Positions 1,446 through 63,732 of a stretch of 64,000 nt of DNA are shown here, piece by piece. Location: the IMG/VR virus record IMGVR_UViG_3300035182_002389, positions 138,519 through 202,518 of that record, one strand, 5' to 3'. A model generated the notes under the pieces. The model was given only the letters and a program-made list of their open reading frames with translations. It did no database searches and was not told where the DNA came from. The position numbers were made by a program, and so were the translations under genes. The DNA comes from a virus (Duplodnaviria > Caudoviricetes). How positions within the stretch are numbered: position 1 is the first letter of the stretch; each line of letters starts with the position of its first letter.

Positions 1446-1460
1446 GGCTTACCGCAAGCC
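1446..1460. promoter_or_regulatory. Palindromic operator copy 1, GGCTT-ACCGC-AAGCC
   Basis: Intergenic, 21 nt before ATG 1482. Confidence 0.75.
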
Positions 1461-1481
1461 TTCATCCAAGAAAGCACGATC

Positions 1482-2126
1482 ATGTCGCACACCCGTGAAG
1501 AAGTTCTGACCCGCGCGATGGACGTCAACGCGCAGATGCAGGAAGTCGGCAAACTCGCCTTCTCGCTCTGCTTCGACCTTCAAGGGGCGGTCGCTACGGG
1601 CATGGCAGCCATCGCCAACATGAGCCCGACGCTCACCGAGGTCGCCGCCGTTCAGGCCTCGTTGCTCGGCGACATGATCCCGCAAATCGCCGTCAGCGTT
1701 CGGCGATGCAAGTCGCTGAACACGGTTCAGGCCGGCGGCGACGCCGCTTTCGTCTCGAAGTTCACGTCGCTGCTCGCGCGCTGGAAGCTCTTCACCCGCC
1801 GCATCCAGGTGTTCAACCTCTTCGGCCAAGGTCCCGACAGCGCGTGGGACACCGTCGGCGTCTACGAGAACATCCTCGCGAAGTATCGCCAGGAAGTGCA
1901 GCTCCTCGCGCCGACGACCGTGGCCAACATCGTCGAGCAGGAGGCGACGCCTCCGAACGTCCTGCCCGAGCCCGTCGACGCGAGCGCGGCTCCTTCGACC
2001 CAGATCGTCGCAGGCGCCGCAGGCGCAAGTGTGCCGGTCGCCGGCACGCCGTGGGCTCTCATCGGCGGCGCGGCCATCGGCGGCGCAGCGCTCACCTATC
2101 TGCTGACGAAGCGTTCGTCCCGATAG
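1482..2126 (+). CDS. C-terminally anchored membrane protein, paralog 1 of tandem triplet
   Basis: HTREEV.., FTRRIQVFNLFGQGPDSAW motif; C-terminal WALIGGAAIGGAALTYLLTKR. Confidence 0.8.
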   Translation: MSHTREEVLTRAMDVNAQMQEVGKLAFSLCFDLQGAVATGMAAIANMSPTLTEVAAVQASLLGDMIPQIAVSVRRCKSLNTVQAGGDAAFVSKFTSLLARWKLFTRRIQVFNLFGQGPDSAWDTVGVYENILAKYRQEVQLLAPTTVANIVEQEATPPNVLPEPVDASAAPSTQIVAGAAGASVPVAGTPWALIGGAAIGGAALTYLLTKRSSR

Positions 2127-2166
2127 GCGACCGAAACCTCGACCCTTCACGCGAAAGAACAAGACC

Positions 2167-2883
2167 ATGCCTTTGCTCGACACCCACTCGCGTGAAGAGG
2201 TCCGCGCCAAAGCGGCGAACGTCGACGCCTCGATGAAGGAGTTCGAGAAGATCGTCCTCTCGCGGATGGCCTTCGACCCGAGCGCCATCGGTTCGGCGGT
2301 CAATGCCGCGCTCGCTCCCGACGCTCCCAACGCCGGCGAGTCCGCCAGCATCCTCGCTGCCAACCTCTCCGATACGGCGCCGTACATCGGCCCCTCCGTT
2401 CAACGCCGCGCCACCATCAGCGCTGCCCAGGCGACCAAGGAGACCGACTTCGCCACGAAGTTCATGGCCTTCTACGCGCGATGGAGCCTCTTCTACAAGC
2501 GCATCCAAGGGTTCGATCTCTTCGGGCCGTCCCCCGACGCCGCGTGGAAGATCGTGACCGACTACGAGACGAACCTCGGCACCTACAAGCAGGAAGCCGC
2601 GCAGATCATGGCCGCGTCGGCCGCTACGCCCGGCCCTGTGTTCGGGCCGCCCATCAACCCGACTCCGGTCGTTCCCGGCCAACCTGCACTGCCGGGGCAG
2701 CCTGCGACGCCCGCGCTCCCCGGGGCAGGGCCCGCCCTGTCCTCGGGCATCCCGTCGTGGCTCCTCATCGGCGGCGTGGCTGTCGGCGGCGTCCTGCTCG
2801 CCCACTACCTGACCAAGTCGAAGGGGCCGACCAGCGGCCAGTCCCTGCCTTCCGCGAGCTTCGCGAGCTACCGAGGCCGGTAG
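2167..2883 (+). CDS. C-terminally anchored membrane protein, paralog 2 of triplet
   Basis: HSREEV.., FYKRIQGFDLFGPSPDAAW; TM WLLIGGVAVGGVLLAHYLTK. Confidence 0.8.
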   Translation: MPLLDTHSREEVRAKAANVDASMKEFEKIVLSRMAFDPSAIGSAVNAALAPDAPNAGESASILAANLSDTAPYIGPSVQRRATISAAQATKETDFATKFMAFYARWSLFYKRIQGFDLFGPSPDAAWKIVTDYETNLGTYKQEAAQIMAASAATPGPVFGPPINPTPVVPGQPALPGQPATPALPGAGPALSSGIPSWLLIGGVAVGGVLLAHYLTKSKGPTSGQSLPSASFASYRGR

Positions 2884-2927
2884 CCCGAACTTCGCCACCG
2901 AACCTTTCGAGCCCTTCGAGGAGACCC

Positions 2928-3662
2928 ATGGCCGACTATCAGAACGCGCTCTTCAACACCCACGAACGCGGAGAGGTGAGGGCGCGAGCGTCGACCGTCG
3001 ATGCGGCGATCTCGACCTACAATCGAGACCTGCTCGCGCAGATCGCGTTCGATGCGGCCGACGTCGGAACGAACCTCTCAAAGTACCTCACGAACGATCT
3101 CGGCGCGTCCGACGGCGAAGCTTCGCTCATCGTGGAAGAGAGCGTCGCCGTCGCCGCTCCCTTCCTCGTGCACGCAGGACAGCGCGTCGCCATCGTCCCG
3201 GTCGACACCGCACAGAGCGAGAAGACCTTCTACCAGGGATGGTCGAAGTTCTACGGCAAGTGGAAGCTCTTCTTCACGCGCATCCAAAGCTTCAGCCTGC
3301 TCGGCCCGTCCCCCGACGACGCCTGGAACATGCTCATGCAGTTCGAGACCGATTTTGCCGCGTGGAAGAAGCAGGGCGAGACCCTGCTCCACGTCAAATC
3401 GACGGCCCCCGACGTTCCCGCTCTCCCGCAGCCGGATCCGGGCGCCGTCGAGAAGTTCGGCTCCTCCGTCGAGTCGGTCGCGAAGACGGTCCTGCTCTAC
3501 GGCGCGCTCGCGGGCGGCGGGTTCCTTCTCTACAAGTACCTCTCCTCGCGTGTCGAGGAGCGCAACATCGGCCTTGGCGAACGACGCGCTGGCGGCTCCA
3601 TGGGCGGCTCGATGATCGGGTCTGCCGAGCCCTACGGCTACCTTCCTTCAGGCCGGCGCTGA
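2928..3662 (+). CDS. C-terminally anchored membrane protein, paralog 3 of triplet
   Basis: GAGGAG RBS before ATG 2928; HERGEV.., FFTRIQSFSLLGPSPDDAW; TM VLLYGALAGGGFLLYKY. Confidence 0.8.
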   Translation: MADYQNALFNTHERGEVRARASTVDAAISTYNRDLLAQIAFDAADVGTNLSKYLTNDLGASDGEASLIVEESVAVAAPFLVHAGQRVAIVPVDTAQSEKTFYQGWSKFYGKWKLFFTRIQSFSLLGPSPDDAWNMLMQFETDFAAWKKQGETLLHVKSTAPDVPALPQPDPGAVEKFGSSVESVAKTVLLYGALAGGGFLLYKYLSSRVEERNIGLGERRAGGSMGGSMIGSAEPYGYLPSGRR

Positions 3663-3696
3663 GGCAAGACGAGATCGGGAACGCGCCTTCGGCGCT

Positions 3697-5256: not shown

Positions 5257-6099
5257 GTGGCCGAAACCCTCGCCGACACGCTTCGCCAGCTCGGCGCCCG
5301 CATGCTTCGGATTCTCACCGAAGAGAAGCATCGAAACCGATCGCCGCTCGAAGTCATTCGCGAAGAGCTGGCTCGGCAGGGGATCGACCCGAGCGGGGAG
5401 AAGCAGAACGCGATCACGCTCTTGTTCGCTGCTTTCTGGGCGATGAGCGGGTTCGCCTACGTCGCGGTCGGCCACACGCTCTCGGCCTCGCTCATGGCCA
5501 CCGATCCGCCCGAGGACGTCGAAGACCTCGACGTCCCATGGCCCGCGTTCATCGTCGGCGTGCCCAACGGCCTCATCCCGGGCGATCCTGCCGAGTTCAT
5601 CGGCATCGCTCGAAGATCCGATTCCAGCGACGCCATGGTTCTGATCGGATGGCGCGCCGGCAACCGCTACTCCGCATGGTTCGGAAGCATTCGCGAACTC
5701 TCAGAGAACGCCAGGCACGCGGGCGCCGACGTCATCCTGCTCTACCGTTTGCTCATCGGCGTCATTCTGGAGCTGGACGCCCCCAAGGCCTCGGGGACCT
5801 TGCAGTCGCCACCGAAGCAGCCGAAGACTCGTCGGCAAGGGGAGCTGCCTCGCGTGTGGGTCTACCGCCTCGTGCGCGACGTCAAGGTCGACTGCCGCCC
5901 GTGGGTGCAGGCGTTCGTGCAGAGCGGAGGCAAGTCGCCGTCCGTGCAGCGCCTCACGCGAGGGCACCAACGACGCGTCGCAGTCGGACCTGGGCGCGCA
6001 GGACGGCGTTGGCAGCGCATCGAGCCCTATTGGAAGGGAAGCGTCGACGCTCCGATTGCGACGAGTCGACACGTCCTTGCGACCAAGCGGCGTCCGTGA
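5257..6099 (+). CDS. Phage-type hypothetical protein with C-terminal RGHxRxxxxGPGR...IEPYWKG motif
   Basis: GTG start after AGGAG; motif recurrent in uncharacterised phage/MGE proteins (from memory). Confidence 0.65.
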   Translation: MAETLADTLRQLGARMLRILTEEKHRNRSPLEVIREELARQGIDPSGEKQNAITLLFAAFWAMSGFAYVAVGHTLSASLMATDPPEDVEDLDVPWPAFIVGVPNGLIPGDPAEFIGIARRSDSSDAMVLIGWRAGNRYSAWFGSIRELSENARHAGADVILLYRLLIGVILELDAPKASGTLQSPPKQPKTRRQGELPRVWVYRLVRDVKVDCRPWVQAFVQSGGKSPSVQRLTRGHQRRVAVGPGRAGRRWQRIEPYWKGSVDAPIATSRHVLATKRRP

Positions 6100-6112
6100 C
6101 TTGTCGAAAGTC
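6098..6112. promoter_or_regulatory. Palindromic operator copy 2, GACTT-GTCGA-AAGTC, followed by TAGGAT -10 (6119-6124)
   Basis: Overlaps upstream stop codon; -10 is 9 nt before ATG 6134. Confidence 0.75.
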
Positions 6113-6133
6113 CAAGCGTAGGATGGTGGCACC

Positions 6134-7346: not shown

Positions 7347-7418
7347 TGGGACGTAGCCAAGTTGGTAAGGCAGGGGATTTTGATTCCCCCACCGCGGGTT
7401 CAAGTCCCGCCGTCTCTA
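7347..7418 (+). tRNA. trnQ: tRNA-Gln (anticodon TTG), CCA not encoded
   Basis: D arm AGCCAAGTTGGTAAGGC, anticodon stem GGGGA/TCCCC with TTG at 7380-7382, T arm GCGGG-TTCAAGT-CCCGC, acceptor TGGGACG/CGTCTCT. Confidence 0.92.
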
Positions 7419-7431
7419 CTGCCGCCGAGGC

Positions 7432-7446
7432 GGCTTTCCACAAGCC
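7432..7446. promoter_or_regulatory. Palindromic operator copy 3, GGCTT-TCCAC-AAGCC, with embedded -35 (TTTCCA) 17 bp from TACTCT
   Basis: TACTCT at 7458-7463, 6 nt before ATG 7470. Confidence 0.8.
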
Positions 7447-7469
7447 AACGAGAAGGGTACTCTTCCACC

Positions 7470-7727
7470 ATGTCGCCCCGCCCCATCCTTTCTCGCCGCG
7501 CCATCACCGGCGCCGTCACCACCGACGTCGCGGCTGCCGCCGCCGCAGCCGCGCCGCCCGTCGCGCCCGCGCCCATCGTCACCACCGAGCCGTCCACCGG
7601 GCAGAAGATCGTCGGCACCGCAGGCGCGGCCGTCGGCCTCGCGGGCATCGGCGCCATGCTGCTCATCCCCGTCGCCGTGCTCGCGCTCATCGGCACCGGC
7701 GCCTACTACCTCTACAAGAAGGCCTGA
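7470..7727 (+). CDS. Small membrane protein with RPxL...TGA leader
   Basis: MSPRPILSRRAITGA; long TM ending GAYYLYKKA. Confidence 0.75.
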   Translation: MSPRPILSRRAITGAVTTDVAAAAAAAAPPVAPAPIVTTEPSTGQKIVGTAGAAVGLAGIGAMLLIPVAVLALIGTGAYYLYKKA

Positions 7728-10281: not shown

Positions 10282-10308
10282 TCTCGCGAAGCTCCAACGA
10301 TTCCTAGA

Positions 10309-10342
10309 GCGGAGGGACTCGCTATCCCTCCGTTCGCCTTTT
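10309..10342 (+). terminator. Rho-independent terminator after peptidase
   Basis: GCGGAGGGA-loop-TCCCTCCGT followed by TCGCCTTTT. Confidence 0.65.
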
Positions 10343-10350: not shown

Positions 10351-10365
10351 GGCTTTTCACAAGCC
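10351..10365. promoter_or_regulatory. Palindromic operator copy 4, GGCTT-TTCAC-AAGCC, with embedded -35 (TTTTCA) 17 bp from TACGAT
   Basis: TACGAT at 10377-10382, 6 nt before ATG 10389. Confidence 0.8.
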
Positions 10366-10388
10366 AGTGTCCGGGGTACGATCTCTTC

Positions 10389-10901
10389 ATGGCCCGACGC
10401 AAGATGACGATCGAAGAGTTCTCCACCGAAGAGCGTCGCCGGCGCGACGCGAAGATCATGAGCCTTCGCGCGCAGCACGAAGCCCACGAGCGCGCGCACG
10501 AGAGCGTCCTCGGATCGCCTCGCTACCAGAAGCTTCGCGCGAAGGGCGGGAGCATCTCTGCCGAAGAGAGCGCGCGCATCTCCTCGATCGCACCCATGAG
10601 CAACGAGCAGCGCGGGGAGCTGGAGCTGGAGGAGATCCTCCGCGATCTGCCGAGCATGTTCGTCGCCTATGCAAAGGTCCACGGGCCGTCCAAGCACGAG
10701 TCGCGGCCCCAATCGGTCACGCTGACCACCTGGCCGGGTCAGGTCATCGCCGAAGGCGTCGCTGGGAGCATCTACAAGTCGCCGGGGTTCGGCGGTCCCA
10801 TCCGCCGACGTCAGGTCGTGGCCAAGATCCGCGGCGTCACCTACGTCGGCATCTGGTCGTTCGACAGCGCCGACGCGGTGCGGATGCGGCGGAGGGGCTG
10901 A
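10389..10901 (+). CDS. Phage-type hypothetical protein
   Basis: LTTWPGQVI..SPGFGG..RGVTYVG C-terminal module; likely leaderless. Confidence 0.65.
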   Translation: MARRKMTIEEFSTEERRRRDAKIMSLRAQHEAHERAHESVLGSPRYQKLRAKGGSISAEESARISSIAPMSNEQRGELELEEILRDLPSMFVAYAKVHGPSKHESRPQSVTLTTWPGQVIAEGVAGSIYKSPGFGGPIRRRQVVAKIRGVTYVGIWSFDSADAVRMRRRG

Positions 10902-11768: not shown

Positions 11769-12347
11769 TCAAGGCGCATTGCGACGCGCCTCGAACGTAA
11801 TCAGGAGCTTGTCGAGCAGATCCTTCATGCGCTTGCGAAGGGCCCCTTCCTTGACGCCGAAGATGACCGCGATCTCCTTGTATTCGAGGCCATCGTCGAG
11901 ACGTAGGGTCAAGAGGTTGCGAGCGTCGTCGCTCAGCTCGCTCGCGATCTCACGGAGAAGCGCCACGTCGCGATGATGTTGAAGTCCCGTCCCCGGGCCT
12001 GCGAGGCTTCCGATCCAACGCTCGCTCGCGACGCCGGAGGTCGGCAAGGTGCGCCGACGCGCTCTCTTCGCCGACTCCGCCGAGTCGAGCGCCTTGTGAC
12101 GAGCGATGCCGCACAGCCACGAGTGCATCGTGCTCTGCCCCGCAAAACCGCCGATCTTTTCGGACGCCGCCGCGAACGTCACTTGCGCCACATCTCGGGC
12201 GCGCTGGTCGTCGCGCACGTAGCGCATCGCGAAGCGGACGATGCTCTTGTAGTAATGGCGGGCGGCAAGGTTCAACGCGCGATGTCGATCGCCCGCCTGA
12301 AGCGCCTGCCGAATCTGAGCCTCGACGGCCGCGATGTCTTCCGCCAT
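11769..12347 (-). CDS. ECF-family RNA polymerase sigma factor
   Basis: Region 2 (ARDVAQVTF..SWLCGIARHKALD) and region 4 (LSDDARNLLTLRLDDGLEYKEIAVIFGVKEGALRKR). Confidence 0.9.
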   Translation of the reverse strand: MAEDIAAVEAQIRQALQAGDRHRALNLAARHYYKSIVRFAMRYVRDDQRARDVAQVTFAAASEKIGGFAGQSTMHSWLCGIARHKALDSAESAKRARRRTLPTSGVASERWIGSLAGPGTGLQHHRDVALLREIASELSDDARNLLTLRLDDGLEYKEIAVIFGVKEGALRKRMKDLLDKLLITFEARRNAP

Positions 12348-12409: not shown

Positions 12410-12661
12410 ATGGCCTACCAGCGCCCCGCGCTCGCCGCTGCGTCTCGACACGTCGCCCCGCGCGCAGCCGTAGGAGGCATCGCCGATGCGGCGCCGCTCG
12501 GCGTTCCCGTTCCCATGTGGCTCATCGTCGCTGGCGGCGCCATCGGCGCCATCGGTGCAATCGAGCCTACCGCTGCGCCCTATCGAACGCCCGTTCTTCT
12601 CGCCGGTCTGCTCACTGCGTGCGCCGGCGCTGGCCTGACCGTCCTCAAGGGGTTCCAATGA
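12410..12661 (+). CDS. Small two-TM membrane protein with RPAL...VGG leader
   Basis: MAYQRPAL..AAVGG; two hydrophobic helices. Confidence 0.7.
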   Translation: MAYQRPALAAASRHVAPRAAVGGIADAAPLGVPVPMWLIVAGGAIGAIGAIEPTAAPYRTPVLLAGLLTACAGAGLTVLKGFQ

Positions 12662-12885
12662 ACTGCCGGCGTCCCGTGCTTGCCCGCATTTCTGGCGCTC
12701 CCGTCGTTCACACGGGCGGAACCTCGTCCGGCGTTCCTGCTACGGGACTCGCCGTCGCGGCAATGTTCGGAGGCATCAGCGTCCTCAGCGCTGCCAGCCT
12801 TCACGATCGGGCTACCGCCAACAGCCTCCTCTACCCGGTCGGCGGCGTTCTCGCTGTGGTCGGGGCCTTGAACCTGCTCTTCTGA
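12658..12885 (+). CDS. Small two-TM membrane protein with RPVL...TGG leader
   Basis: ATGA overlap; MNCRRPVL..HTGG; two helices. Confidence 0.7.
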   Translation: MNCRRPVLARISGAPVVHTGGTSSGVPATGLAVAAMFGGISVLSAASLHDRATANSLLYPVGGVLAVVGALNLLF

Positions 12886-12894
12886 GAGGCTTCC

Positions 12895-13134
12895 ATGAGC
12901 TACCAGCGACCCTCCCTCTGTTCTTCGCCTTCTCGGCCCGCCCTTGCGAGCGTTGGAGGTTCGGACACCTCTTCCGGCGCAAGCGAATGGATCCTCCCCG
13001 TACTGCTCGTCGGAGGGGGCGCTGCACTCTACATGGAGATGCGTCGAGAACGCGCAAAGGAAGAGGCGTCTGTTGTCCAGGGCAGGGCCTTCTACGCGAG
13101 TCGCCACCCTGAGAGGTCGCGCGCCGCGCGATAG
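12895..13134 (+). CDS. Small membrane protein, paralog of 13138
   Basis: RPSLC..SVGG; WILPVLLVGGGAALYMEMRRERAKEE..QGRAFY. Confidence 0.75.
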   Translation: MSYQRPSLCSSPSRPALASVGGSDTSSGASEWILPVLLVGGGAALYMEMRRERAKEEASVVQGRAFYASRHPERSRAAR

Positions 13135-13711: not shown

Positions 13712-13726
13712 GACTTACGCTAAGCT
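13712..13726. promoter_or_regulatory. Variant operator GACTT-ACGCT-AAGCT whose right half doubles as a -10 box (TAAGCT)
   Basis: One mismatch to consensus; 7 nt before ATG 13734. Confidence 0.6.
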
Positions 13727-17122: not shown

Positions 17123-17137
17123 GGCTTGTCGCAAGCC
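17123..17137. promoter_or_regulatory. Palindromic operator GGCTT-GTCGC-AAGCC
   Basis: Intergenic, 22 nt before ATG 17160. Confidence 0.75.
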
Positions 17138-18642: not shown

Positions 18643-19011
18643 ATGCCCTCGTCGAGCCCGTGGATGAAGGTCTTTCTCAGGCGCCTTGCCGATCGCGACG
18701 CAAGAGCCTCGTCCATCCACAGCGTCACCGGCGCGGACATGCACCGATGGTCCTTCGCTTCGTCGACCAAACGAGCCGACTTGCGGCAAGCCTGGGCCAC
18801 GTCCGAAGGCCGCGCTTTCATCCGAGAAGTCGAAGGTCCGCTGCGCGAGTACCTTGCGTGGCGCTATGAGAGACGCCGGTTGCGGCCCACGCAGGGAGAC
18901 GTCAAGAGGCTCGTTGAAGACGTTCTGCTCGAACAGCTCGACGCGTTCAAGGACCCCACACTCAACTTCCATCGCCTCGCCCGACTCATCGTCGACATCT
19001 ACGGAGAATGA
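18643..19011 (+). CDS. Hypothetical protein (122 aa)
   Basis: AGGAG upstream; coupled to next gene. Confidence 0.55.
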   Translation: MPSSSPWMKVFLRRLADRDARASSIHSVTGADMHRWSFASSTKRADLRQAWATSEGRAFIREVEGPLREYLAWRYERRRLRPTQGDVKRLVEDVLLEQLDAFKDPTLNFHRLARLIVDIYGE

Positions 19012-20661: not shown

Positions 20662-20676
20662 GGCTTTTCATAAGCC
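20662..20676. promoter_or_regulatory. Palindromic operator GGCTT-TTCAT-AAGCC (extends to CCGGCTT..AAGCCGG)
   Basis: Intergenic upstream of 20767; TAGGAT at 20713-20718. Confidence 0.75.
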
Positions 20677-26031: not shown

Positions 26032-26046
26032 GACTTTCGACAAGCC
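26032..26046. promoter_or_regulatory. Palindromic operator GACTT-TCGAC-AAGCC
   Basis: Intergenic upstream of the H1-like gene cluster. Confidence 0.75.
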
Positions 26047-45022: not shown

Positions 45023-45517
45023 ATGCTCCTCCGCAAGTGTCAGGCGCCAGGCTGCGAGCACACGTTCATCGTGGGCGCACGCAACGCGCATCAGAAGTAC
45101 CACTGCCGAAGTTGCGGAGAGGCCGACCGGAAACGGTGGATGCGCCCCGAGCGGCAGCAATACATGCGCGGATACATGCGCGACTACCTTGTCGGCTACG
45201 TTCGTCCTGAAGACCGGGCCAACGACGGCGAGGAGATGCCCAGCGCCATGGTTGCCGGCGCGGAGCCCGTCAGCGAACAAAAGGCAACGCCCAATCAGGA
45301 GATCCTGATCGAGTCGCCCATCCTGACAACGCACCATCTAACAATCGCGCCTTCGACCAAGCCCGACCTCAGCCTCTCGTTTCTCAAGACTTCGAGCGCA
45401 CGAGAAAAAGATTCAGAGCCCGCCACGGAGGCCGATTCTGCGCCCAAGACCTACGATGACGAAGCGTCGGGGCACGTCCTGCTCTCGCGCAAGAAGCGGC
45501 TTGTCAAAAGTCGCTGA
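45023..45517 (+). CDS. Zn-finger hypothetical protein
   Basis: CQAPGC..HCRSC then charged helix YMRGYMRDY. Confidence 0.6.
   Translation: MLLRKCQAPGCEHTFIVGARNAHQKYHCRSCGEADRKRWMRPERQQYMRGYMRDYLVGYVRPEDRANDGEEMPSAMVAGAEPVSEQKATPNQEILIESPILTTHHLTIAPSTKPDLSLSFLKTSSAREKDSEPATEADSAPKTYDDEASGHVLLSRKKRLVKSR
45498..45512. promoter_or_regulatory. Palindromic operator GGCTT-GTCAA-AAGTC
   Basis: In last codons of 45023 gene, 14 nt before ATG 45527. Confidence 0.7.
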
Positions 45518-48158: not shown

Positions 48159-48173
48159 GACTTTCCGTAAGCC
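48159..48173. promoter_or_regulatory. Palindromic operator GACTT-TCCGT-AAGCC
   Basis: Intergenic, 18 nt before ATG 48192. Confidence 0.75.
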
Positions 48174-50545: not shown

Positions 50546-50893
50546 GTGTCGCCCTACGCCATGTCTCCGTACGCCTACGTCATCGAATACGGGCTCGCGC
50601 TCGGCACCATCACGCCCAGCGAAGTCCGCGACATCGGGCTCGACCCGAGAGACTTCTGGCCCGACTTCTCGCAAGTCGTTCCGAAGCCCGGCGTTCGGCA
50701 GACCAGCTACAAGGGCTCCAAGGTCACGACTCCGATGAAGCCGCCCTACCCCGCGAACGATCCCGTCCTGCAAGCCGTCGCGTACGGCTTGCAGAACGGA
50801 ATCATCGCGATCAAGCAGGTCGACTGGCTCGGGCTTCACCCTGCCTACTTGGTTCCGTCGAACGTTCACTTCCCGAAGCTGCGGACCGAGTAG
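50546..50893 (+). CDS. Hypothetical protein with two ~28-aa internal repeats
   Basis: YGLALGTITPSEVRDIGLDP / YGLQNGIIAIKQVDWLGLHP. Confidence 0.65.
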   Translation: MSPYAMSPYAYVIEYGLALGTITPSEVRDIGLDPRDFWPDFSQVVPKPGVRQTSYKGSKVTTPMKPPYPANDPVLQAVAYGLQNGIIAIKQVDWLGLHPAYLVPSNVHFPKLRTE

Positions 50894-50969: not shown

Positions 50970-52019
50970 ATGGACTCGAAGACTCCCTACATCATCGGCG
51001 GCCTGGCCGTGCTCGGCGTCGGCGCCTACTTCCTGCTCCGCAAGACCCCGGTCACCGCTGCGGCGACTCCGGGAACTACCGCGCTGCCCGCCGGTGGAAC
51101 TCCCGTCGCCGGAACGCCCGCCACGACCGTCCCGCAGGCCATGCCTGCCGGGTGGCCGACCAGCATTCCGTGGCCGCCGCCCGGCCTGCCCGCCGGCACG
51201 GCGCTGCCGACCGCCAAGCCTGCATGGTGGCCCGCCGGCATCACCTACCCGCCGACCGTTCCGACGAACGTCTCGAACGTCCCGAGCAGCCTGCCCGGCA
51301 CCACGACGTCTCCCCAGCCGCCGGCCGAAGCCAAGTTCAACCGCCTCGGCGCGACCCCCGATCAGGAGGCGCAGGCCAAGCAGAACATGTGGCACGTGCT
51401 TCAGATGGTCGCGCTTGCCGACGCAACCGCGAATCCTGCCACGCTCGACGCGACGCACACCGTCGGCCTCGGTTCGAGCGACCCGAGCGGCACCTCCGCA
51501 GCGCAGAGCATCGCAATGCTCAACGACGCTCTCAACGGCGGCGGACAGTACGTCCTCATCAGCGTTCCCCCGACCGACGGATCGGGCAACGCCATGCCTC
51601 CGACCTTCCTGTTCACGAACCTCGAAGGCGCCATGTCTTCCGGTCTCGGCGCGGGCGTCGGCGGCCCGTGGACGCTCTTCCTCACCCCGAACGAGTGGCG
51701 CACCGTCGAAGCCGCCGTCGTCGCACAGGGAGCGCCTCCCGCCGTTCCGACTCTTCCGCAGAGCGCTCCGACGGGGTGGCCGGCGGGCGTCGCATGGCCC
51801 CCGACCGGATGGACCCCGGGGCAGCCCGTTCCCTCGACGGCTCCCTCGGGCTGGCCGGCCAGCATCCCCTGGCCTCCGACCTCCGCGAGCATCCCGGGAT
51901 TCACCCCGCCCGCCGGAACGCCCCAGATCCCGCCCAGCATCCCGACCGATCCGACGCAGTACGCCGCCTACATCGCCCAGCTCAAGGCCATGGGCCTCCC
52001 GGTCCCTCCCGGCGCCTGA
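50970..52019 (+). CDS. N-anchored membrane protein with GWP..WPP repeats flanking a globular domain
   Basis: AGGAG RBS; YIIGGLAVLGVGAYFLLRK; QYVLIS; WTLFLTPNEWRTV. Confidence 0.8.
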   Translation: MDSKTPYIIGGLAVLGVGAYFLLRKTPVTAAATPGTTALPAGGTPVAGTPATTVPQAMPAGWPTSIPWPPPGLPAGTALPTAKPAWWPAGITYPPTVPTNVSNVPSSLPGTTTSPQPPAEAKFNRLGATPDQEAQAKQNMWHVLQMVALADATANPATLDATHTVGLGSSDPSGTSAAQSIAMLNDALNGGGQYVLISVPPTDGSGNAMPPTFLFTNLEGAMSSGLGAGVGGPWTLFLTPNEWRTVEAAVVAQGAPPAVPTLPQSAPTGWPAGVAWPPTGWTPGQPVPSTAPSGWPASIPWPPTSASIPGFTPPAGTPQIPPSIPTDPTQYAAYIAQLKAMGLPVPPGA

Positions 52020-52038
52020 TTCGACCACGCGTTTTCGG

Positions 52039-52080
52039 TGGAGCCCTCGACGTCGCGCTTTGCGGCGTCGCAGGGCTCCA
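52039..52080. other. Long intergenic hairpin
   Basis: TGGAGCCCT-CGACGTCGC-GCTTT-GCGGCGTCG-C-AGGGCTCCA. Confidence 0.6.
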
Positions 52081-52115
52081 TGATGCTGCGGGGTTCGCCC
52101 GCCAAGAGAAACCTC

Positions 52116-52727
52116 ATGGCCGACAGCTTCGAGTCCATCCCAGCATCCGCCCGCAAGGAAGCGTCGAACACGCTGCTCTACGTTTTGCTCGGCGGCGCCG
52201 CTCTTGCCGGCGTCGCTTGGTTTCTCACGAAGAAAGAACCGCCGCTCGTTGCTGGGCCGGACAACCAAACCAGACCGCTGCCGCCGCCTTCCGTGCCAGC
52301 GCCGCCAAGCGTTCCCGAGATGACCAACGCCGAGAAGGTGTTGCTCTGGCGGCAGCTCGCCTCTGCGCAGCTCGAAAACGGATCTGCTCCGAACACGACC
52401 AACATCATCGGGCGAACGCCCGCGTCCAACGAAGCGACCACCTCCGCGCTTCGCGACATCGTCTACCGAAATCGATCCGTCGCCGAAACTACGGCGGATG
52501 CGCAAACCGTCACGATGTCGGCGCCGAACCTTGCGCCTGCTGCGGCCCAGCCTGGCAAATACGTTCTTGTCTCCTTGAACGGACTCGTCTTGTGGTTCGC
52601 CACCCTCGACGAAATCAAGAACGAAGTGCTCACGGCATCGAAGAACTACCGGATCTTTCTCAAGCCTGACGAATGGAGCACTGTTCAGGCTCTCGCTGGC
52701 GCCCCGTACGCGGCGGTCCTCCCATGA
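52116..52727 (+). CDS. N-anchored membrane protein, paralog of 50970 globular domain
   Basis: LLYVLLGGAALAGVAWFLTKK; KYVLVS; YRIFLKPDEWSTV. Confidence 0.75.
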   Translation: MADSFESIPASARKEASNTLLYVLLGGAALAGVAWFLTKKEPPLVAGPDNQTRPLPPPSVPAPPSVPEMTNAEKVLLWRQLASAQLENGSAPNTTNIIGRTPASNEATTSALRDIVYRNRSVAETTADAQTVTMSAPNLAPAAAQPGKYVLVSLNGLVLWFATLDEIKNEVLTASKNYRIFLKPDEWSTVQALAGAPYAAVLP

Positions 52728-52903
52728 AAGCCCCCTCGCTCACTCGCCGAGTCGGAACCGAAAGCACGGCCCACACGGGCGCGTGGACCATGGGCTGCGA
52801 AGAAACCGTCTCCACGCCAGTCATGCTCATTCACGTGGGCGCAGCTCTCGTTCTTTACGCAATCGCCTATGAGCGCGGCGCGGCTTCTGAGAAAAAGACC
52901 TGA
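52724..52903 (+). CDS. Small membrane protein
   Basis: ATGA overlap; RRVGT..HTGA; TM VMLIHVGAALVLYAIAY. Confidence 0.6.
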   Translation: MKAPSLTRRVGTESTAHTGAWTMGCEETVSTPVMLIHVGAALVLYAIAYERGAASEKKT

Positions 52904-52950
52904 CCAAACTTCGGCGCACTTCCAACGCCCACGACTGACGGAGTTTTACG

Positions 52951-53376
52951 ATGCCCTGCCCCAACCCGAGCTGCCCGTACGCAAACGACCCAAGCCACTT
53001 CTGCCCATGCTCCTCGGCTGCTGTCGGTAGGGGCGGCGGGGGAGGGGGCGGAGGACATGGAGGCGGCGGAGGAGGCCATGGAGGCGGCGGAGGCGGCGGA
53101 GGCCACGGCGGCGGAGGGCATGGCGGAGGTGGAGGCCGCGGGTGGGGCGGCGGAGGGTGGGGAAACTACGGGCTGAGGCCCAGGCCGCACGGGTACTACG
53201 GCTGGTACGCAAACGGATACTGGTGGCCGGGCTGGTGGGACTACCCGAACGAGCTGAACGATACGAGCAGCCTCCTCGCACTCGCCAGAGCCTTGCAGAA
53301 CGGCGCCATCACAGGCGCGCAGGTGCGAGCCATGGGGATCAGCCCCAACGCCCTCATCGCCATCCTCAGCCCGTAG
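52951..53376 (+). CDS. Cys-rich leader, Gly/His-rich and Trp/Tyr-rich protein
   Basis: MPCPNPSC..AAVG, GHGGGGG repeats, YYGWYANGYWWPGWW, C-terminal ALQNGAITGAQVRAMGISP. Confidence 0.7.
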   Translation: MPCPNPSCPYANDPSHFCPCSSAAVGRGGGGGGGGHGGGGGGHGGGGGGGGHGGGGHGGGGGRGWGGGGWGNYGLRPRPHGYYGWYANGYWWPGWWDYPNELNDTSSLLALARALQNGAITGAQVRAMGISPNALIAILSP

Positions 53377-53385: not shown

Positions 53386-53400
53386 GACTTACCGCAAGCC
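53386..53400. promoter_or_regulatory. Palindromic operator GACTT-ACCGC-AAGCC
   Basis: Intergenic, 18 nt before ATG 53419; same spacer as copy at 1446. Confidence 0.75.
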
Positions 53401-53876: not shown

Positions 53877-54188
53877 ATGGCCGCCAAAAAAGCGAAGAAG
53901 TGGTCGAAAAAGATCAAGACGTCCTGGGAACCGCCGGAGGGTCTTTTCAAGCAAGACCCGAAGACGATCGCGTACGCGGTCGCGTCCGATTCCAAGGACT
54001 TGCGGCAAGCCGTCCAGAGGATCCAGTTCTACGTGAACCGCGCCGGATCGAATCTGTCCACCGAGCGCAAGCGTACAATGGACAGGGCCAAGGACTACGT
54101 TCGGTTCCTCTTCGACAACCCGTCCTCGCTCGCGCAAGTGCGACGTTCGTCGATCGCCCCATCCTCCACCTTCCTGTCCCTCGCTTGA
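53877..54188 (+). CDS. DUF3175-like protein
   Basis: KKWS..EGLFKQDPKTIA..QFYVNRAGSNL..RAKD pattern (from memory). Confidence 0.65.
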   Translation: MAAKKAKKWSKKIKTSWEPPEGLFKQDPKTIAYAVASDSKDLRQAVQRIQFYVNRAGSNLSTERKRTMDRAKDYVRFLFDNPSSLAQVRRSSIAPSSTFLSLA

Positions 54189-54435: not shown

Positions 54436-55119
54436 ATGAACAACACGTCGCGCGAGTGGGTCATCACCTTCCAAAAAGGAGCCAAGAGCGAGCCGGTCCA
54501 GCTCGTTCGATTGTCTGCCACGAGCGCCGACATCGCGAAGAAGACGTTCCTGTCGCTCGTCCCTCATGCGAAGGTCTACAACGTAGGTCTCGGCATCGGC
54601 GACGAGAGGATTCCACGCATCGACCAGATCCTCGACGCTTCGGAGCTTTCCTCCGCGGCGAAGAAGAACACGCCCCGGAGAAGCACCATGCCCAAGGCAA
54701 AGAAGGCCGCGAAGAAGAGCACGAAGAAGGCCGCGAAGAAGAGCGCGAAGAAGCGCCCGGCCAAGAAGCACGTGGCCAAGAAGGTCGCCAAGAAGCACAC
54801 GGCGAAGAAGCACACGGCGAAGAAGACCGCCAAGAAGCGTGCACCGAAGAAGGCTGCCAAGAAGCGTGCGCCGAAGAAGGCCGCCAAGAAGCACGCGCCG
54901 AAGAAGGCCGCCAAGAAGCACGCGCCGAAGAAGGCCGCCAAGAAGCACGCGCCGAAGAAGGCCGCCAAGAAGACCGCCAAGAAGTCGGCGAAGAAGTCGC
55001 CGGCCGATCGCGTCGCACGCCGCAAAAAGTGGAACGCGTTCCAGAAGTCGCACGCGGGCAAGGGCCTCACCAAGAAGCAGCTCGGCGAGAAGTTCAAGAA
55101 GGCCCACCCGGAGAAGTGA
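54436..55119 (+). CDS. Histone H1-like protein 4 with N-terminal globular domain; second in-frame start at 54688
   Basis: GAGGA RBS; KKAAKK repeats; GGAG 7 nt before internal ATG (MPKAKKAAKK). Confidence 0.8.
   Translation: MNNTSREWVITFQKGAKSEPVQLVRLSATSADIAKKTFLSLVPHAKVYNVGLGIGDERIPRIDQILDASELSSAAKKNTPRRSTMPKAKKAAKKSTKKAAKKSAKKRPAKKHVAKKVAKKHTAKKHTAKKTAKKRAPKKAAKKRAPKKAAKKHAPKKAAKKHAPKKAAKKHAPKKAAKKTAKKSAKKSPADRVARRKKWNAFQKSHAGKGLTKKQLGEKFKKAHPEK
54844..54972 (+). repeat. Five 27-bp units encoding PKKAAKK(R/H)A
   Basis: Units start 54844, 54871, 54898, 54925, 54952. Confidence 0.9.
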
Positions 55120-55611: not shown

Positions 55612-55626
55612 GGCTTACGGTAAGCC
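55612..55626. promoter_or_regulatory. Palindromic operator GGCTT-ACGGT-AAGCC followed by TG-A-TAGGAT (55640-55645)
   Basis: -10 lies 9 nt before ATG 55655. Confidence 0.78.
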
Positions 55627-55654
55627 CCGACGCCCGTGATAGGATCAAGACACC

Positions 55655-55930
55655 ATGTTCGACTACAACCCGCACGTCTTCACCGGAGCCGAAACGACCG
55701 CCACGGGCCCGACGCAGCCCGGTCTCACCACGCCTCCGGGCACGCCCCCGTCGACGTTCTTCAGCGACAACAAATACTACATCATCGGCGGCGTGGCCGT
55801 CGTCGGCGTGGCCGCGTACATGCTGATGGCCAAGAAGGGCGACAAATCCATCTCGGGCTCCGACTCCAGCGTCGGCGGCTACCATCGCGACAGCTACGCC
55901 GGCATCCAGCACGCCGCCCGTCGACGCTAG
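55655..55930 (+). CDS. Small membrane protein
   Basis: YYIIGGVAVVGVAAYMLMAKK. Confidence 0.75.
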   Translation: MFDYNPHVFTGAETTATGPTQPGLTTPPGTPPSTFFSDNKYYIIGGVAVVGVAAYMLMAKKGDKSISGSDSSVGGYHRDSYAGIQHAARRR

Positions 55931-58539: not shown

Positions 58540-58724
58540 CAGAACCTCCTACGAGTCAGGAACCTCGTACGTCCAGACGAGGGCGGCTTCCGACAAGTCG
58601 GGGGAGCAGTCGCGCTCCGCCGGGGCGTCAACAAGAGGATACCTCGCGCCAACGGATCGCGCCCTTCGATCCGAAGGCTCGTTCAAGCTCGAACGATCCG
58701 AGACGCATTCTCTTGCTTCGCACG

Positions 58725-59619: not shown

Positions 59620-59622
59620 ACG

Positions 59623-59952
59623 TCAACCGCACTTCAGAATGATGGGGGTCGCTCGCATGATACGCGCAGCGGCCTTCTTCATGTCTTCGCGCAGGAACGG
59701 AGGCCGCGTCGGCATCGAAACGCCCTTGGCTTCCGCTTCTTCTCGCCAGGTCTCACGCATCCGAATCGCCGCAAGATTCACCACGGTATCCGCAATCTCG
59801 TCGCGGATCTGATTGTGGGTCCAACCCTCGCGCTGGCCCTTCTTGATCAGCTCGATCGCTTCCGATGTGAGCGCCTTGCTCTTGAGGATGGCCCGAGCAA
59901 GGTATCGCCCCGGAGGGACCGTCGTTTTTCCTGTCTGGGGATCGCGCGGCAT
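59623..59952 (-). CDS. Hypothetical protein (109 aa), probably leaderless
   Basis: TATTCT 6 nt before ATG on - strand. Confidence 0.65.
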   Translation of the reverse strand: MPRDPQTGKTTVPPGRYLARAILKSKALTSEAIELIKKGQREGWTHNQIRDEIADTVVNLAAIRMRETWREEAEAKGVSMPTRPPFLREDMKKAAARIMRATPIILKCG

Positions 59953-60005: not shown

Positions 60006-60020
60006 GACTTTTCATAAGCC
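60006..60020. promoter_or_regulatory. Palindromic operator GACTT-TTCAT-AAGCC with embedded -35 (TTTTCA) 17 bp from TACACT
   Basis: TACACT at 60032-60037; upstream of 60070. Confidence 0.8.
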
Positions 60021-60069
60021 ACAGACGCGCGTACACTTGCCGGCAGACGTCTACACCGAGGAACAGCTC

Positions 60070-60624
60070 ATGCCCTTCTGCCCATCTTGCGGTAAGAATC
60101 ACGCCGCCGTTGGCGCTCTCGTCGGGGCGAACCCGTACCGCTCCAACGTGCAGAAGCTCCACACCGTCATGCAGCAGGTCATGCACCGAGCCAGCATCGG
60201 CGATCCCGGGACTCTCAGCGTCACACTGGCAAAGGCTCTCCCCCTCGCCAACGGCGGTCGCGGCAAGACGCAGAACGTGCAAGCGCTCGGCCCGCTCAAC
60301 CTCGTCGGGCTCCACATTGGAACCGCTGAAGGCGTGGCTAGTGGGCTCAAGGTCACGAGGGTCCAGATCGGCCGACACGACATCCTTCCAATGGATCAGT
60401 CGGGCCGACTCATCGACCCGAATCCTGCCAAGAAGAACGCCTTCGGCAACCAACCGATCATCGCCGGATGGGACATTGGCCAGACGATCCCGCTCGACCC
60501 TCAAGGGCTGATGTGGAAGGCCTCCACGCCCAGCGACTACGCCTACCAAGATCAGGTGCTCTGGATCACGTTCTGGAATCGGTCAGGACAAACGGTCACG
60601 CCAAACGGCATCGCCATCTACTGA
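60070..60624 (+). CDS. CxxC/VGA-leader protein with all-beta domain; candidate single-jelly-roll capsid-type protein
   Basis: MPFCPSC..AAVGALVGA; alternating beta-strand pattern (LSVTL, LNLVGLHI, LKVTRVQIG, LWITFWN); fold unverified. Confidence 0.4.
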   Translation: MPFCPSCGKNHAAVGALVGANPYRSNVQKLHTVMQQVMHRASIGDPGTLSVTLAKALPLANGGRGKTQNVQALGPLNLVGLHIGTAEGVASGLKVTRVQIGRHDILPMDQSGRLIDPNPAKKNAFGNQPIIAGWDIGQTIPLDPQGLMWKASTPSDYAYQDQVLWITFWNRSGQTVTPNGIAIY

Positions 60625-60684: not shown

Positions 60685-61842
60685 CTACACCGACTCCAGA
60701 AGCTCCACGACCTCTCCCAGTGTTACGCCGAGGTCCCTCGCCAGCTTCAGAAACGCCTCCACCTCCGGGGCCATGTGACGCTTTGCGGATAGCGTTGCTC
60801 GCGTCAGTCGAACCGTCGTCGCAATGCCCTCCGTCTCCGGCGGCGGCGAGGCCTTCGGAGGCTGAACGGAAGGTGCTGAGACCGGCAAGTCCTTGACCAT
60901 GGGAGCCAGACGTCCGGCACCAATGGACGGTGCGGACTGATTGCGAGACGTGTTCAAAGGATCCTCCTCATTCGTTGGCGTACCGCGAAGATTCAACTGT
61001 CCAATCGGCGGGGAAATATTACGGACCTTGGGAGGCCCCACGTCTCGGATCTCTGGAAACAGATCACAGAGGGCCGCGTAGTGCTCTTGCACCGGAACAG
61101 AACTTCCGGCCTCCCATGCGGTAACAGCCGTCCGGTTCAGACCGCGACCGATCAGTTCGCCCAGATCCTCCTGCGTCAAACCATGCTTTTCTCGCAGCGA
61201 TCGCAACGCATCCGCGAAACAGAGATCGACGAGGGCTCCGTGGACCTTAGAGATCGGCGGGGCGCGCGATTCCGAATGAACATCGCTCGCCAAAGGTGCC
61301 AAGCCGGGAAGAGGAACCTGAACGCTCTTTGGGGGGACGGGCCTGAGCCCAAAACCTGCGAGATCGTTCGCCACGCTCACTGCAACGCCCGCCGCCGCAC
61401 CAGCGAGGTCTGGAGTAATCGCGGCTCCTCGTTCGCCGACCATATCCAAAAGCTTCACAGCAATCTCGCCCGCCGCGTGACCGCCAACATTTCTGGCGAA
61501 GCGACGCGCCAGCTCTACGGTCTCTCCCTTTGCCGTGAAGATGGTCGGCATGGGCTCATTGGATGAAGAGGAGACCAACACCTTTCGGCGCGACGGGAAA
61601 AGATGAAGGTGGGCCTTGAGCTGCTTGAAGACGTGGAGGAGGCGCGATAGCTGAGGGCCTGTAGGCTCACGCTCTCCTTCCTCCCAACACCTCACATCAT
61701 CTTGCGAGGCTCTGGTCTTCTCCGCGAGCTTCTTGAACGAGGTTCCGCTTCTCTCTCGCTGTTCTCGTAACATGTCGCCAAACGTCTTTCGCTCAACACG
61801 AAAATCCGGCGGATCAACCACGCGAACATGTGCAGTGCCCAT
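60685..61842 (-). CDS. Transcriptional regulator with two XRE-family HTH domains
   Basis: FGDMLREQRERSGTSFKKLAE..WEEGEREP and FADALRSLREKHGLTQEDLGE..TAVTAWEAGSSVP. Confidence 0.85.
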   Translation of the reverse strand: MGTAHVRVVDPPDFRVERKTFGDMLREQRERSGTSFKKLAEKTRASQDDVRCWEEGEREPTGPQLSRLLHVFKQLKAHLHLFPSRRKVLVSSSSNEPMPTIFTAKGETVELARRFARNVGGHAAGEIAVKLLDMVGERGAAITPDLAGAAAGVAVSVANDLAGFGLRPVPPKSVQVPLPGLAPLASDVHSESRAPPISKVHGALVDLCFADALRSLREKHGLTQEDLGELIGRGLNRTAVTAWEAGSSVPVQEHYAALCDLFPEIRDVGPPKVRNISPPIGQLNLRGTPTNEEDPLNTSRNQSAPSIGAGRLAPMVKDLPVSAPSVQPPKASPPPETEGIATTVRLTRATLSAKRHMAPEVEAFLKLARDLGVTLGEVVELLESV

Positions 61843-62399: not shown

Positions 62400-62668
62400 T
62401 TCCTCTTGCGCCCTTTCTTGCGCGCCTTACGGGCCGACTTGGCCCGAACCCGTTCTTCCGGGTCCGCATCGCCGTGACCAAACTGAGCGCGAAGCCACAC
62501 CTCTCTTCGTTCAAAGGCCAACTCGGCCGCCGACTTGTGAGAAGTGTTCTTCGGAGAAGAAGGAAAGTTGTCATACGTCGCCGTCGCGGTCCAAACCTCG
62601 ATAACCTGTGGGGTCTGCGGCGTGATCGCGCCGTAAGGCAAAATCGTGTAGTCCCAGATTCGGTTCAC
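62396..62668 (-). CDS. Hypothetical protein with basic tail (90 aa)
   Basis: Coupled in leftward operon. Confidence 0.55.
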   Translation of the reverse strand: MNRIWDYTILPYGAITPQTPQVIEVWTATATYDNFPSSPKNTSHKSAAELAFERREVWLRAQFGHGDADPEERVRAKSARKARKKGRKRK

Positions 62669-62671
62669 GAC

Positions 62672-62950
62672 CTACCACCGTTTCTTCGCGAGCCATTCCG
62701 GGAAAAGCTGCTCGATTCGGCCCAAGACTCGAACACGCATCTCCAACTCGTCCGACAACAGGCCGTCGCGACGATTGCCGCGCATCGTCAAAATCCCACG
62801 ACGCCCATTCAGCTCGATCTCGTCACGAACCATTCGCAACACCACGTCCTTGCGCGTCGGGAGCGAGAGGCCGCTCCCGACGAGCAAGTAGGTGACGAGA
62901 TCGACAACATCGTCCGTCGTAAGACGATGTCGGATCTGCACCGTCAGCAT
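62672..62950 (-). CDS. Hypothetical protein (92 aa)
   Basis: GGAG upstream; leftward operon. Confidence 0.6.
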   Translation of the reverse strand: MLTVQIRHRLTTDDVVDLVTYLLVGSGLSLPTRKDVVLRMVRDEIELNGRRGILTMRGNRRDGLLSDELEMRVRVLGRIEQLFPEWLAKKRW

Positions 62951-62955
62951 GGCCG

Positions 62956-63699
62956 CTACGAACGCTCCGCGATCGCCTTGAAGAGACGCTTCACGAGCTT
63001 CTGCTGCGCGAAGAGGACCTTGAGGAGCTTCTCATCGAAGTTGATGCTGCTCGGAATCGGGGGCAGATCGATGATCTCGCTCTCCGCTTCCGGCCGAGCC
63101 CCGCCGCAAGACCCGCCTCCGTCACAAGCTCCGCCGCAGCCGGGCTGAACGACGCGAGACGTCTCCTCCGAGACCTTCGCCTGAGCGTCGGCGAGCGATC
63201 CGTGCTCCTTGAGCAGCTCGGTCACGGTCGCCGGAATCTGCTCGTACAGGCGAGCCTCCAGACCGAGCAGTCCGCCGATCTCCGACAGCAACGACTCGAA
63301 GTGATCGGAGCTTTTCGTCTCGTCCTTCAAGTGCTCCACGACTTCGGCCACTCGTTCCGGGAGCGCCATCACGGTCGCGTAGTCGGGCGTCAAGCCGAGT
63401 GCAGACGCGATCCGATCGAGAGCATTGCGGAACTTCAGCTCGGCGATCGTGCAGCGAACATCCCCCTCCACCATGTAGATGACCGCGTAGGCCTTGACGC
63501 CTTCGCCCTTGCTCACCGTGTCGACCGTCTCCTCCGCCTCGGCGCGCGTCGCGTACTTCACGATGCGCCCCATCTGCTCGACGGGGCTCCCGTTCGCTCG
63601 GCACACTGCCCACGCCACCGGCACCCGAAGCGCATCGCGATCTCCGATCGAACCACGCGGCTCGCTCGCCGACTCCGCGTCCGTCTTGTCGCTCTCCAT
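62956..63699 (-). CDS. Coiled-coil hypothetical protein (upstream TTG at 63765 possible)
   Basis: GGAGGG RBS before ATG 63699; repeated LGL..Y..xPxxVxEL segments. Confidence 0.65.
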   Translation of the reverse strand: MESDKTDAESASEPRGSIGDRDALRVPVAWAVCRANGSPVEQMGRIVKYATRAEAEETVDTVSKGEGVKAYAVIYMVEGDVRCTIAELKFRNALDRIASALGLTPDYATVMALPERVAEVVEHLKDETKSSDHFESLLSEIGGLLGLEARLYEQIPATVTELLKEHGSLADAQAKVSEETSRVVQPGCGGACDGGGSCGGARPEAESEIIDLPPIPSSINFDEKLLKVLFAQQKLVKRLFKAIAERS

Positions 63700-63717
63700 C
63701 TCGCCCTCCGCTGCCAG

Positions 63718-63732
63718 AACTTGCCGTAAGCC
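63718..63732. promoter_or_regulatory. Near-match operator AACTT-GCCGT-AAGCC in leader of leftward operon
   Basis: One mismatch to consensus. Confidence 0.45.

Follow-up and report, generated by a model that had tools for sequence, protein, structure and literature searches.

The final 64 kb of a virus genome in the IMG/VR collection (Duplodnaviria; Caudoviricetes; record IMGVR_UViG_3300035182_002389, a single contig of 202,518 bp) carries many copies of a 15-bp palindrome, G(G/A)CTT-N5-AAG(C/T)C, which recurs over the rest of the record. The stretch analysed, positions 138519–202518 of the contig, is referred to here as the window, and positions below are window positions unless marked as genome positions. 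The palindrome is a real and symmetric site, it is under selection, and it is concentrated in non-coding DNA and at the heads of transcription units. With moderate confidence, we read it as the dispersed operator of one symmetric protein dimer, probably a repressor, that would occlude RNA polymerase at promoters and block it elsewhere. The dimer is most likely encoded by the virus itself. The palindrome is one more case of a known class, the phage-wide operator regulons, and not a new class. Almost all genes of this virus lack known relatives, and the palindrome provides a first handle on viral control: it marks around 45 transcription-unit heads and narrows the search for a master regulator to a few testable proteins.

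Copy number and significance

The window contains 18 exact copies of the palindrome, compared to 0.22 ± 0.44 expected from dinucleotide-preserving shuffles, and none of 100 shuffles reached 18. An initial annotation, made from the sequence by eye, had reported 14 exact copies and two near matches, and had put the chance expectation at well under one copy per window. All 14 copies are present at the positions given, the near matches at 13712 and 63718 carry one mismatch each, and the shuffles bear out the estimate; four exact copies had been overlooked, at 18778, 50663, 53997 and 58585. In the whole 202.5-kb record we find 54 exact copies, while a symmetric position weight matrix (PWM) applied at a threshold of at least 12 bits returns 75 sites genome-wide, compared to approximately 3 in Markov-simulated sequence. 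Chance expectation for these exact copies and PWM sites is in the range of ~0.7–3. In a control set of 45 unrelated IMG/VR loci, for which one 17-mer variant served as seed, there was 1 further copy in total, indicating that the motif is private to this virus, and no other virus carrying it was found.

Symmetry of the site

The consensus, cGRCTTGYSRCAAGYCg, is a 17-bp dyad with a non-random spacer (c-GRCTT-(G/T)-Y-S-R-C-AAGYC-g), and the information content of the flanks outside this dyad is near zero. The half-site centres are 10 bp apart, in a 5-N5-5 arrangement. Combinations of the degenerate positions R1 and Y13 match independence, with counts for GG/CC, A/C, G/T and A/T of 19, 16, 14 and 5 against expected values of 21, 14, 12 and 7. 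When the sites are oriented by the downstream gene, the two halves are equally degenerate (G20/A10 versus C19/T11; flank C19 versus G15), and A·C mismatches on the transcribed strand are seen in 12 of 45 oriented sites, compared to ~10 expected by chance. Because the halves vary independently, the motif is best described, as far as its sequence tells, as a two-fold symmetric DNA site of the kind read by a protein dimer, and not as an RNA hairpin.

Other classes of element were tried and set aside. The symmetry that persists after gene orientation rules out an asymmetric, stoperator-type site oriented with transcription. A repetitive extragenic palindromic (REP)-type or mobile repeat is rejected, as the flanks are unique, and a restriction or modification site is unlikely given the partly conserved spacer and a 14-fold bias towards non-coding DNA. 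Nor is the motif part of an extracytoplasmic function (ECF)-sigma promoter or a fixed −35 box, since there is no conserved column downstream and the distance to the −10 box spans 10–27 nt. Known SOS consensus sequences are CTGT-N8-ACAG, GAAC-N4-GTTC and TCGAAC-N4-GTTCGA. The palindrome has neither half-site nor spacing in common with these, in line with the initial remark that it resembles no familiar LexA box, and we take it to match none of the SOS, CRP/FNR, HAIR or CIRCE consensus sequences.

Distribution among genes

Our own rough gene calls give 324 genes, with 87% of the record coding and 13% non-coding. By these calls, 35 of the 54 exact copies are intergenic, two overlap a stop codon and 17 lie in a coding sequence (CDS), so that site density is 14-fold higher in non-coding DNA. 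It had been claimed initially that each site is intergenic or on an upstream stop region. This is true of the 14 sites then listed but not genome-wide, where 17 of the 54 copies are in open reading frames (ORFs); in this full scan, the densities inside and outside coding sequences are nonetheless far from similar. The in-ORF copies are also selected. Synonymous-codon shuffles produce 1.55 ± 1.09 such copies, with a maximum of 5 in 300 shuffles, compared to the 17 observed, and these copies use the rare codons TTG (6% of Leu) and CAA (at 25%, the rarer Gln codon in this genome). Nine of them are within the first ~115 nt of an ORF, typically in tightly packed early operons.

Between 80 and 202 kb of the genome, a site is found within 150 nt of 44 of the 106 transcription-unit heads, compared to only 4 of 66 internal genes. 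The sites are spaced more evenly than random (coefficient of variation (CV) 0.73 versus 0.97, p ~0.009), which follows from there being roughly one site per operon. Seven divergent gaps each contain one central site that faces both genes (genome 45100, 94960, 99437, 115560, 120049 and 123224, and window 60006). The sites at 1446, 17123, 48159, 53386, 45498 and 63718 stand 14–22 nt before Shine-Dalgarno-led start codons and lack a −10 box. The site at 45498 is kept in a 95%-identical contig, with a G-to-A change at the degenerate R position.

Genes directly downstream of the sites are nearly all ORFans without assignable function, and Pfam and PHROG scans of 60 site-adjacent genes revealed no regulators. 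Membrane proteins make up 5 of 20 directly downstream genes and 30 of 87 window genes, so there is no enrichment. The initial proposal that the site switches membrane, structural and DNA-packing operons together is not borne out by these data, the sites being spread over the whole 202-kb genome.

Relation to promoters

Many promoters of this genome consist of a −10 box only (often gTGnTAnnnT) located 6–7 nt before the ATG of a leaderless gene, a promoter grammar that points to a high-GC host rich in leaderless mRNAs. We catalogued 64 such promoters at gene starts, for example at 7458–7472, 10377–10391 and 55637–55657. The palindrome is centred 8–30 nt upstream of 18 of these, and the other 46 are without it; −35 boxes are equally poor in both groups. 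Since the site is absent from 46 comparable promoters whose −35 boxes are no better, it appears to be an add-on control and not a part of the core promoter.

Starting instead from the sites, we see that approximately 19 are centred 10–27 nt upstream of a TAnnnT −10 box (mode 19–22), many of them on leaderless genes, and these sites therefore cover the −35/spacer region. Taking the −10 hexamer as −12 to −7, the site centre lies at −22 to −39, with a modal position of −32. A TAnnnT hexamer is present at 8–30 nt from 16 of 37 intergenic sites, compared to 14% of random intergenic positions, and no −10 boxes are found between 45 and 5 nt upstream of a site centre. The initial annotation had pointed out a TTnnCA box exactly 17 nt from a TAnnnT box at 7432, 10351 and 60006. 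That arrangement is present at all three, but it does not represent a fixed −35 register, as the distance from site centre to −10 box varies from 10 to 27 nt. Early genes (0–70 kb) have separate promoters of the TTGACA type.

Sites in the window

The sites and one associated promoter are listed here by window position.

1446–1460: exact site GGCTTACCGCAAGCC; intergenic, 12 nt past a stop (1433), and ATG 1482 follows after 21 nt; TAnnnT is absent within 30 nt.
6098–6112: exact site overlapping the stop of the upstream ORF; −10 box TAGGAT at 6119–6124; ATG 6134.
7432–7446: exact site, 12 nt past the tRNA-Gln gene; TTTCCA, 17 nt, TACTCT (7458–7463), 6 nt, ATG 7470; leaderless type.
10351–10365: exact site following a terminator-like hairpin (10307–10335) and T-run, and so at the head of a transcription unit; TTTTCA, 17 nt, TACGAT (10377–10382), 6 nt, ATG 10389.
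13712–13726: one-mismatch site GACTTACGCTAAGCT, in which the right half gives a TAAGCT that ends 7 nt short of ATG 13734.
17123–17137: exact site, 15 nt past a stop; the Shine-Dalgarno-led ATG 17160 follows after 22 nt, and a downstream −10 box is lacking.
18778–18792: exact site, overlooked initially, within the ORF 18643–19011 (GC content at third codon positions 0.76); reads D-L-R-Q-A.
20662–20676: exact site, 10 nt past a stop and 90 nt before ATG 20767; TAGGAT at 20713.
26032–26046: exact site, 20 nt upstream of a TTGACA box (26067–26072) and 113 nt before the start at 26160 in our own calls; the ORF list has ATG 26082 as the start of this gene.
29440–29454: exact site overlapping the stop of a RadA/DnaB-like ATPase gene (28319–29446), 95 nt before ATG 29550.
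32618–32632: exact site, 14 nt past the stop of a collagen-like fibre gene (31113–32603) and 37 nt before ATG 32670.
45498–45512: exact site within the final 20 nt of the preceding ORF; ATG 45527 follows after 14 nt.
48159–48173: exact site, intergenic; the Shine-Dalgarno-led ATG 48192 follows after 18 nt.
50663–50677: exact site, overlooked initially, deep within the CDS 50546–50893; reads D-F-S-Q-V.
53386–53400: exact site, 9 nt past a stop and 18 nt before ATG 53419.
53997–54011: exact site, overlooked initially, within the CDS 53877–54188; reads D-L-R-Q-A.
55612–55626: exact site; extended −10 box TGaTAGGAT with its hexamer at 55640–55645; ATG 55655.
58585–58599: exact site, overlooked initially, in a 777-nt stretch without clear coding signal.
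60006–60020: exact site midway along the 117 nt that separate the divergent genes 59623–59952 (minus strand) and 60070–60624 (plus strand); rightwards TTTTCA, 17 nt, TACACT (60032–60037), leftwards TACGCT 21 nt from the site centre.
63718–63732: one-mismatch site in the 5′ untranslated region (UTR) of the leftward operon whose last gene is the XRE gene; ATG 63699 (minus strand) follows after 18 nt.
63796–63824, minus strand: sigma-70-type promoter TTGACA, 17 nt, TATGGT, driving the leftward operon from 63699 to 60685.

Proposed mode of action and candidate binding proteins

In the reading we favour, host RNA polymerase would transcribe the virus from −10-only promoters, with mRNA often starting at the ATG. 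One reading head of a dimer would bind GRCTT and the other AAGYC, in neighbouring major grooves spaced by 10 bp. At about one third of sites, the operator would lie over the −35/spacer region of a −10-only promoter, and at the seven divergent gaps one site could cover two promoters. The other sites mark gene boundaries, closely precede a ribosome-binding site or fall within the opening ~100 nt of an ORF. Bound dimer would occlude RNA polymerase at the promoter sites and act as a roadblock at the others, such that one protein could hold down some 45 transcription units together.

Only four recognisable DNA-binding proteins were found among the ~324 genes. The following genes bear on the identity of the binder.

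60685–61842, minus strand: XRE protein of 385 aa with two helix-turn-helix (HTH) domains, both HTH_31 matches above the curated cut-off.
Genome 12550–13083, plus strand: MarR-family winged-helix regulator of 177 aa, in the early region outside the window; the only MarR protein in the genome.
11769–12347, minus strand: ECF-type sigma factor (Sigma70_r2 and r4_2) in a block of plus-strand genes; the only Sigma70_r2 match in the genome.
Genome 51439–53148, plus strand: early ORFan of 569 aa, in which FDRSRERVRQMETQGLTKLRH closely matches RpoD region 4.2, including the −35-reading residues.

Candidates for the binder are the MarR protein, the double-XRE protein, and an ORFan product without a recognisable DNA-binding domain, the last because some 60 site-adjacent genes are ORFans and the binder may not be recognisable by sequence. 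The product of the MarR gene scores 25.7 with HTH_27 (cut-off 22.2) and 28.9 with MarR_2 (cut-off 27) in a six-frame search, and it matches PcaV, HosA, SlyA and MepR in the PDB. An exact palindrome begins 7 nt past the stop of this gene. By analogy with characterised family members, a MarR-type homodimer is a candidate that fits the 5-N5-5 geometry at least as well as the double-XRE protein does. The latter is the only XRE protein in the genome. Its operon has one-mismatch sites at 63718, in the 5′ UTR, and at 62532, and no exact site, and these sites lie between the promoter and the genes; a single-sequence AlphaFold2 model of the protein is poor, with a predicted local distance difference test (pLDDT) score of 47. 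The ECF sigma factor is not tied to the motif, as there is no conserved box at a fixed distance from it, and the 569-aa protein could be a sigma mimic or a −35-box binder. Searches of the genome with HTH_17, RHH_1, MerR_1, GerE and TetR_N were negative, and a search with ParB_N gave only a weak match below threshold, with no ParA above threshold.

A number of observations weigh against a dispersed viral operator of this kind. For around 60% of the sites, a −10 box cannot be recognised in the vicinity. The interval from the −10 box to +20, often used by purely steric repressors, is free of sites, and a modal centre near −32 would also be compatible with an activator or a −35 stand-in. Integrase, resolvase and ParA were not found, which leaves a lysogeny-type master repressor without an obvious role. 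Comparative support is thin, consisting of one conserved site in the 95% relative, and one site common to a 48% relative may be explained by a conserved peptide (the site in contig L001 aligns to position 41578, inside a conserved WLV(V/T)S peptide). None of the RNA runs searched for this virus contain it, and our gene calls agree with independent calls over 113.6–125.5 kb, the sole region compared. With respect to the candidates, no site of at least 9 bits is found between genome positions 8568 and 13090, and so none at the promoter of the MarR gene itself. The two XRE HTH domains are 27% identical and their recognition helices differ, which would make for a poor fit with one chain reading a perfectly symmetric site. 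The dimeric regulator proposed initially thus remains the best reading of a large regulon with a symmetric site, but its assignment to the double-XRE protein is not specifically supported, given the divergence of the two HTH domains and a MarR gene that fits at least as well.

Competing explanations

The most serious alternative is that the palindrome is a positive promoter element. A viral dimer, modelled on a class II activator or on the T4 MotA box, would replace the missing −35 contact and draw or redirect host polymerase to middle and late −10-only promoters, and would do so in both directions at divergent gaps. This would account for the site being always upstream and never downstream of the −10 box, for the modal centre at ~−32, and for the four to five cases in which an embedded TTG is exactly 17 nt from the −10 box. 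The gathering of sites at transcription-unit heads in the non-early 80–202 kb, the separate TTGACA-type promoters of early genes and the failure to find lysogeny genes also speak for it. We nonetheless consider it unlikely, as the −10 spacing varies by 17 nt, takes in every helical phase and includes centres as near as −22, as 46 like promoters lack the site, and as many sites lie in ORFs or against a ribosome-binding site without a −10 box. The same evidence is what favours an occluding operator: the site is dispensable for like promoters, its distance to the −10 box covers every helical phase down to −22, and copies in ORFs and 5′ leaders are selected. Variation of 17 nt in −10 spacing suits occlusion better than it does a fixed activator contact.

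A related and rather doubtful possibility is a bidirectional promoter-specificity element, at which a viral dimer would substitute for the −35 contact and license host polymerase at the −10-only, often leaderless, promoters of middle and late genes, with the in-ORF copies marking internal starts. If so, a giant virus lineage unrelated to T4 would have evolved a symmetric equivalent of the MotA box.

It is improbable that the palindrome has a non-transcriptional function, such as loading or anchoring, at intervals along the chromosome, a protein involved in genome organisation, condensation, packaging or a partition-like process. The sites are more evenly spaced than random, some selected copies are inside ORFs, 60% of sites have no promoter signal nearby, and a histone-H1-like protein with KKAAKK repeats is encoded at 54436–55119. 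Such a function does not explain the 14-fold preference for non-coding DNA, the positions at transcription-unit heads or the directional placement upstream of −10 boxes; ParB and ParA were not found above threshold, and the even spacing is what approximately one site per operon would give.

Recruitment by the virus of the site of a host global regulator is, in our assessment, quite improbable. No viral binder has been tied to the site, and recognisable DNA-binding proteins are scarce in this genome, both of which would be in keeping with a host protein. However, none of the 45 other viral loci seeded with the motif shows multi-copy use, the motif is not known to match any of the host regulator consensus sequences considered above, and the virus itself encodes dimer-type regulators. 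Finally, a small RNA hairpin acting as a terminator, processing site or translational operator can be rejected as very improbable: although a stem of 5–6 bp can be drawn and many copies are 14–22 nt before start codons, there is no covariation, A·C mismatches occur at the chance rate, the motif is symmetric relative to gene direction, one copy can serve divergent genes, no site is followed by a T-run or called as a terminator, and an Rfam search found only the tRNA and no match at the motif.

Comparison with known systems

The nearest described case is the palindrome of the Cluster O mycobacteriophages. In Corndog, a 17-bp palindrome, TGTTCGGNNNCCGAACA, is present in 34 copies, of which 14 are between ORFs, 10 are just inside the 5′ ends of ORFs and 10 are inside ORFs, and its binder was not identified (PMC4351075). 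As in our virus, this is a short perfect dyad with more than 30 copies genome-wide, a three-way placement and no orientation bias, present alongside separate SigA-type promoters. The two differ in sequence and in architecture, the mycobacteriophage site being 7-N3-7 and the present one 5-N5-5 with degenerate (R/Y) half-sites. In addition, the present genome is 202 kb long, has no detectable relatives and shows a measurable link between the site and the −10 boxes of leaderless genes.

Immunity repressors of Cluster A phages (L5 gp71 type) bind operators and stoperators genome-wide (PMC9283540, PMC6550527). As here, tens of sites are scattered genome-wide, at promoters as well as within or between genes; in those phages, sites of the latter kind block elongation (PMC9283540, PMC6550527). 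By analogy, the palindrome would act like these operator-plus-stoperator systems, but through a symmetric site. Stoperators are asymmetric, read by a monomer and oriented with transcription, in contrast to the unoriented symmetric dyad described here, and the Cluster A phages are temperate, with integration or partition genes of which none were found in this virus.

MarR proteins are obligate homodimers. One homodimer of the MarR-family repressor MexR reads GTTGA-N5-TCAAC across two adjacent major grooves (PMC9892617), and this operator, like ours, has inverted half-sites of 5 bp separated by a 5-bp gap. A MarR gene is present in the virus, and MarR operators usually overlap promoters to repress them. 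The difference lies in scale, as a MarR regulator usually governs its own promoter and no more than one or a few nearby operons, whereas here there are 54–75 sites and none upstream of the MarR gene.

Phage P1 C1 repressor and the KorA and KorB proteins of IncP plasmids are further instances of one element-encoded repressor with operators dispersed over many operons. The P1 operators are asymmetric 17-mers, and KorB is a ParB-family protein. In the present virus, by contrast, the site is symmetric, a ParB-type protein was not found above threshold, and no plasmid-maintenance genes were found in the record.

The virus and other features of its genome

Sediment and mat metagenomes are the source of the record, which IMG/VR lists as a linear virus and CheckV estimates to be 94% complete; its GC content is 65%, and the window genes are nearly all on the plus strand. 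The lineage appears to be very isolated. Scans of IMG/VR and GTDB genomes returned no relatives, and with JGI metagenomes included these scans yielded only one 2-kb and one 3-kb contig, while one Logan contig matches the genome at 100% identity. Relatives at ~92% are present in two sequencing runs, and contigs of the assembly GCA_041643055.1 show ~48% protein identity. Among 5.8 billion proteins, a 545-aa protein has only 3 homologues, homologue searches with a 431-aa protein and with the XRE protein detected nothing beyond the queries themselves, and the large proteins mostly lack a Pfam or PHROG match. Profile searches of this 94%-complete record for tyrosine integrase (PF00589), resolvase (PF00239) and ParA (PF13614) gave no match. 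Searches with T7 RNAP, Rpb2, Terminase_6N and FtsK were also negative, and since a viral RNA polymerase was not found, host polymerase must transcribe the genome.

A single tRNA-Gln(TTG) gene is found at 7347–7419, which is 12 nt upstream of the palindrome at 7432. The 227-aa protein encoded at 54436–55119 (plus strand) has a long (A/P)KKAAKK repeat tail similar to that of histone H1 or AlgP, and probably condenses DNA without sequence specificity; this locus draws very high metagenome contig depth from other organisms.

In the early half of the genome we see long intergenic hairpin and simple-repeat elements, comprising (GGGAAC)n/(GTTCCC)n and related families, at 3.7, 11.3, 19.9, 27.9, 36.4, 47.4, 55.2 and 58.9 kb (genome positions). 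Elements of this type never coincide with the palindrome. The TTGACA-type promoters, such as those at genome 16621, 28030, 51397, 66993 and 67431 and at window 26067, often have ATGTAC(G/A)T in the spacer and may constitute a second operator/promoter class for early genes. The right end of the record has a further palindrome, TGTCAATGTTGACA (63815–63830), made up of TTGACA boxes placed back to back; were the genome circularly permuted, this region might serve for divergent control.

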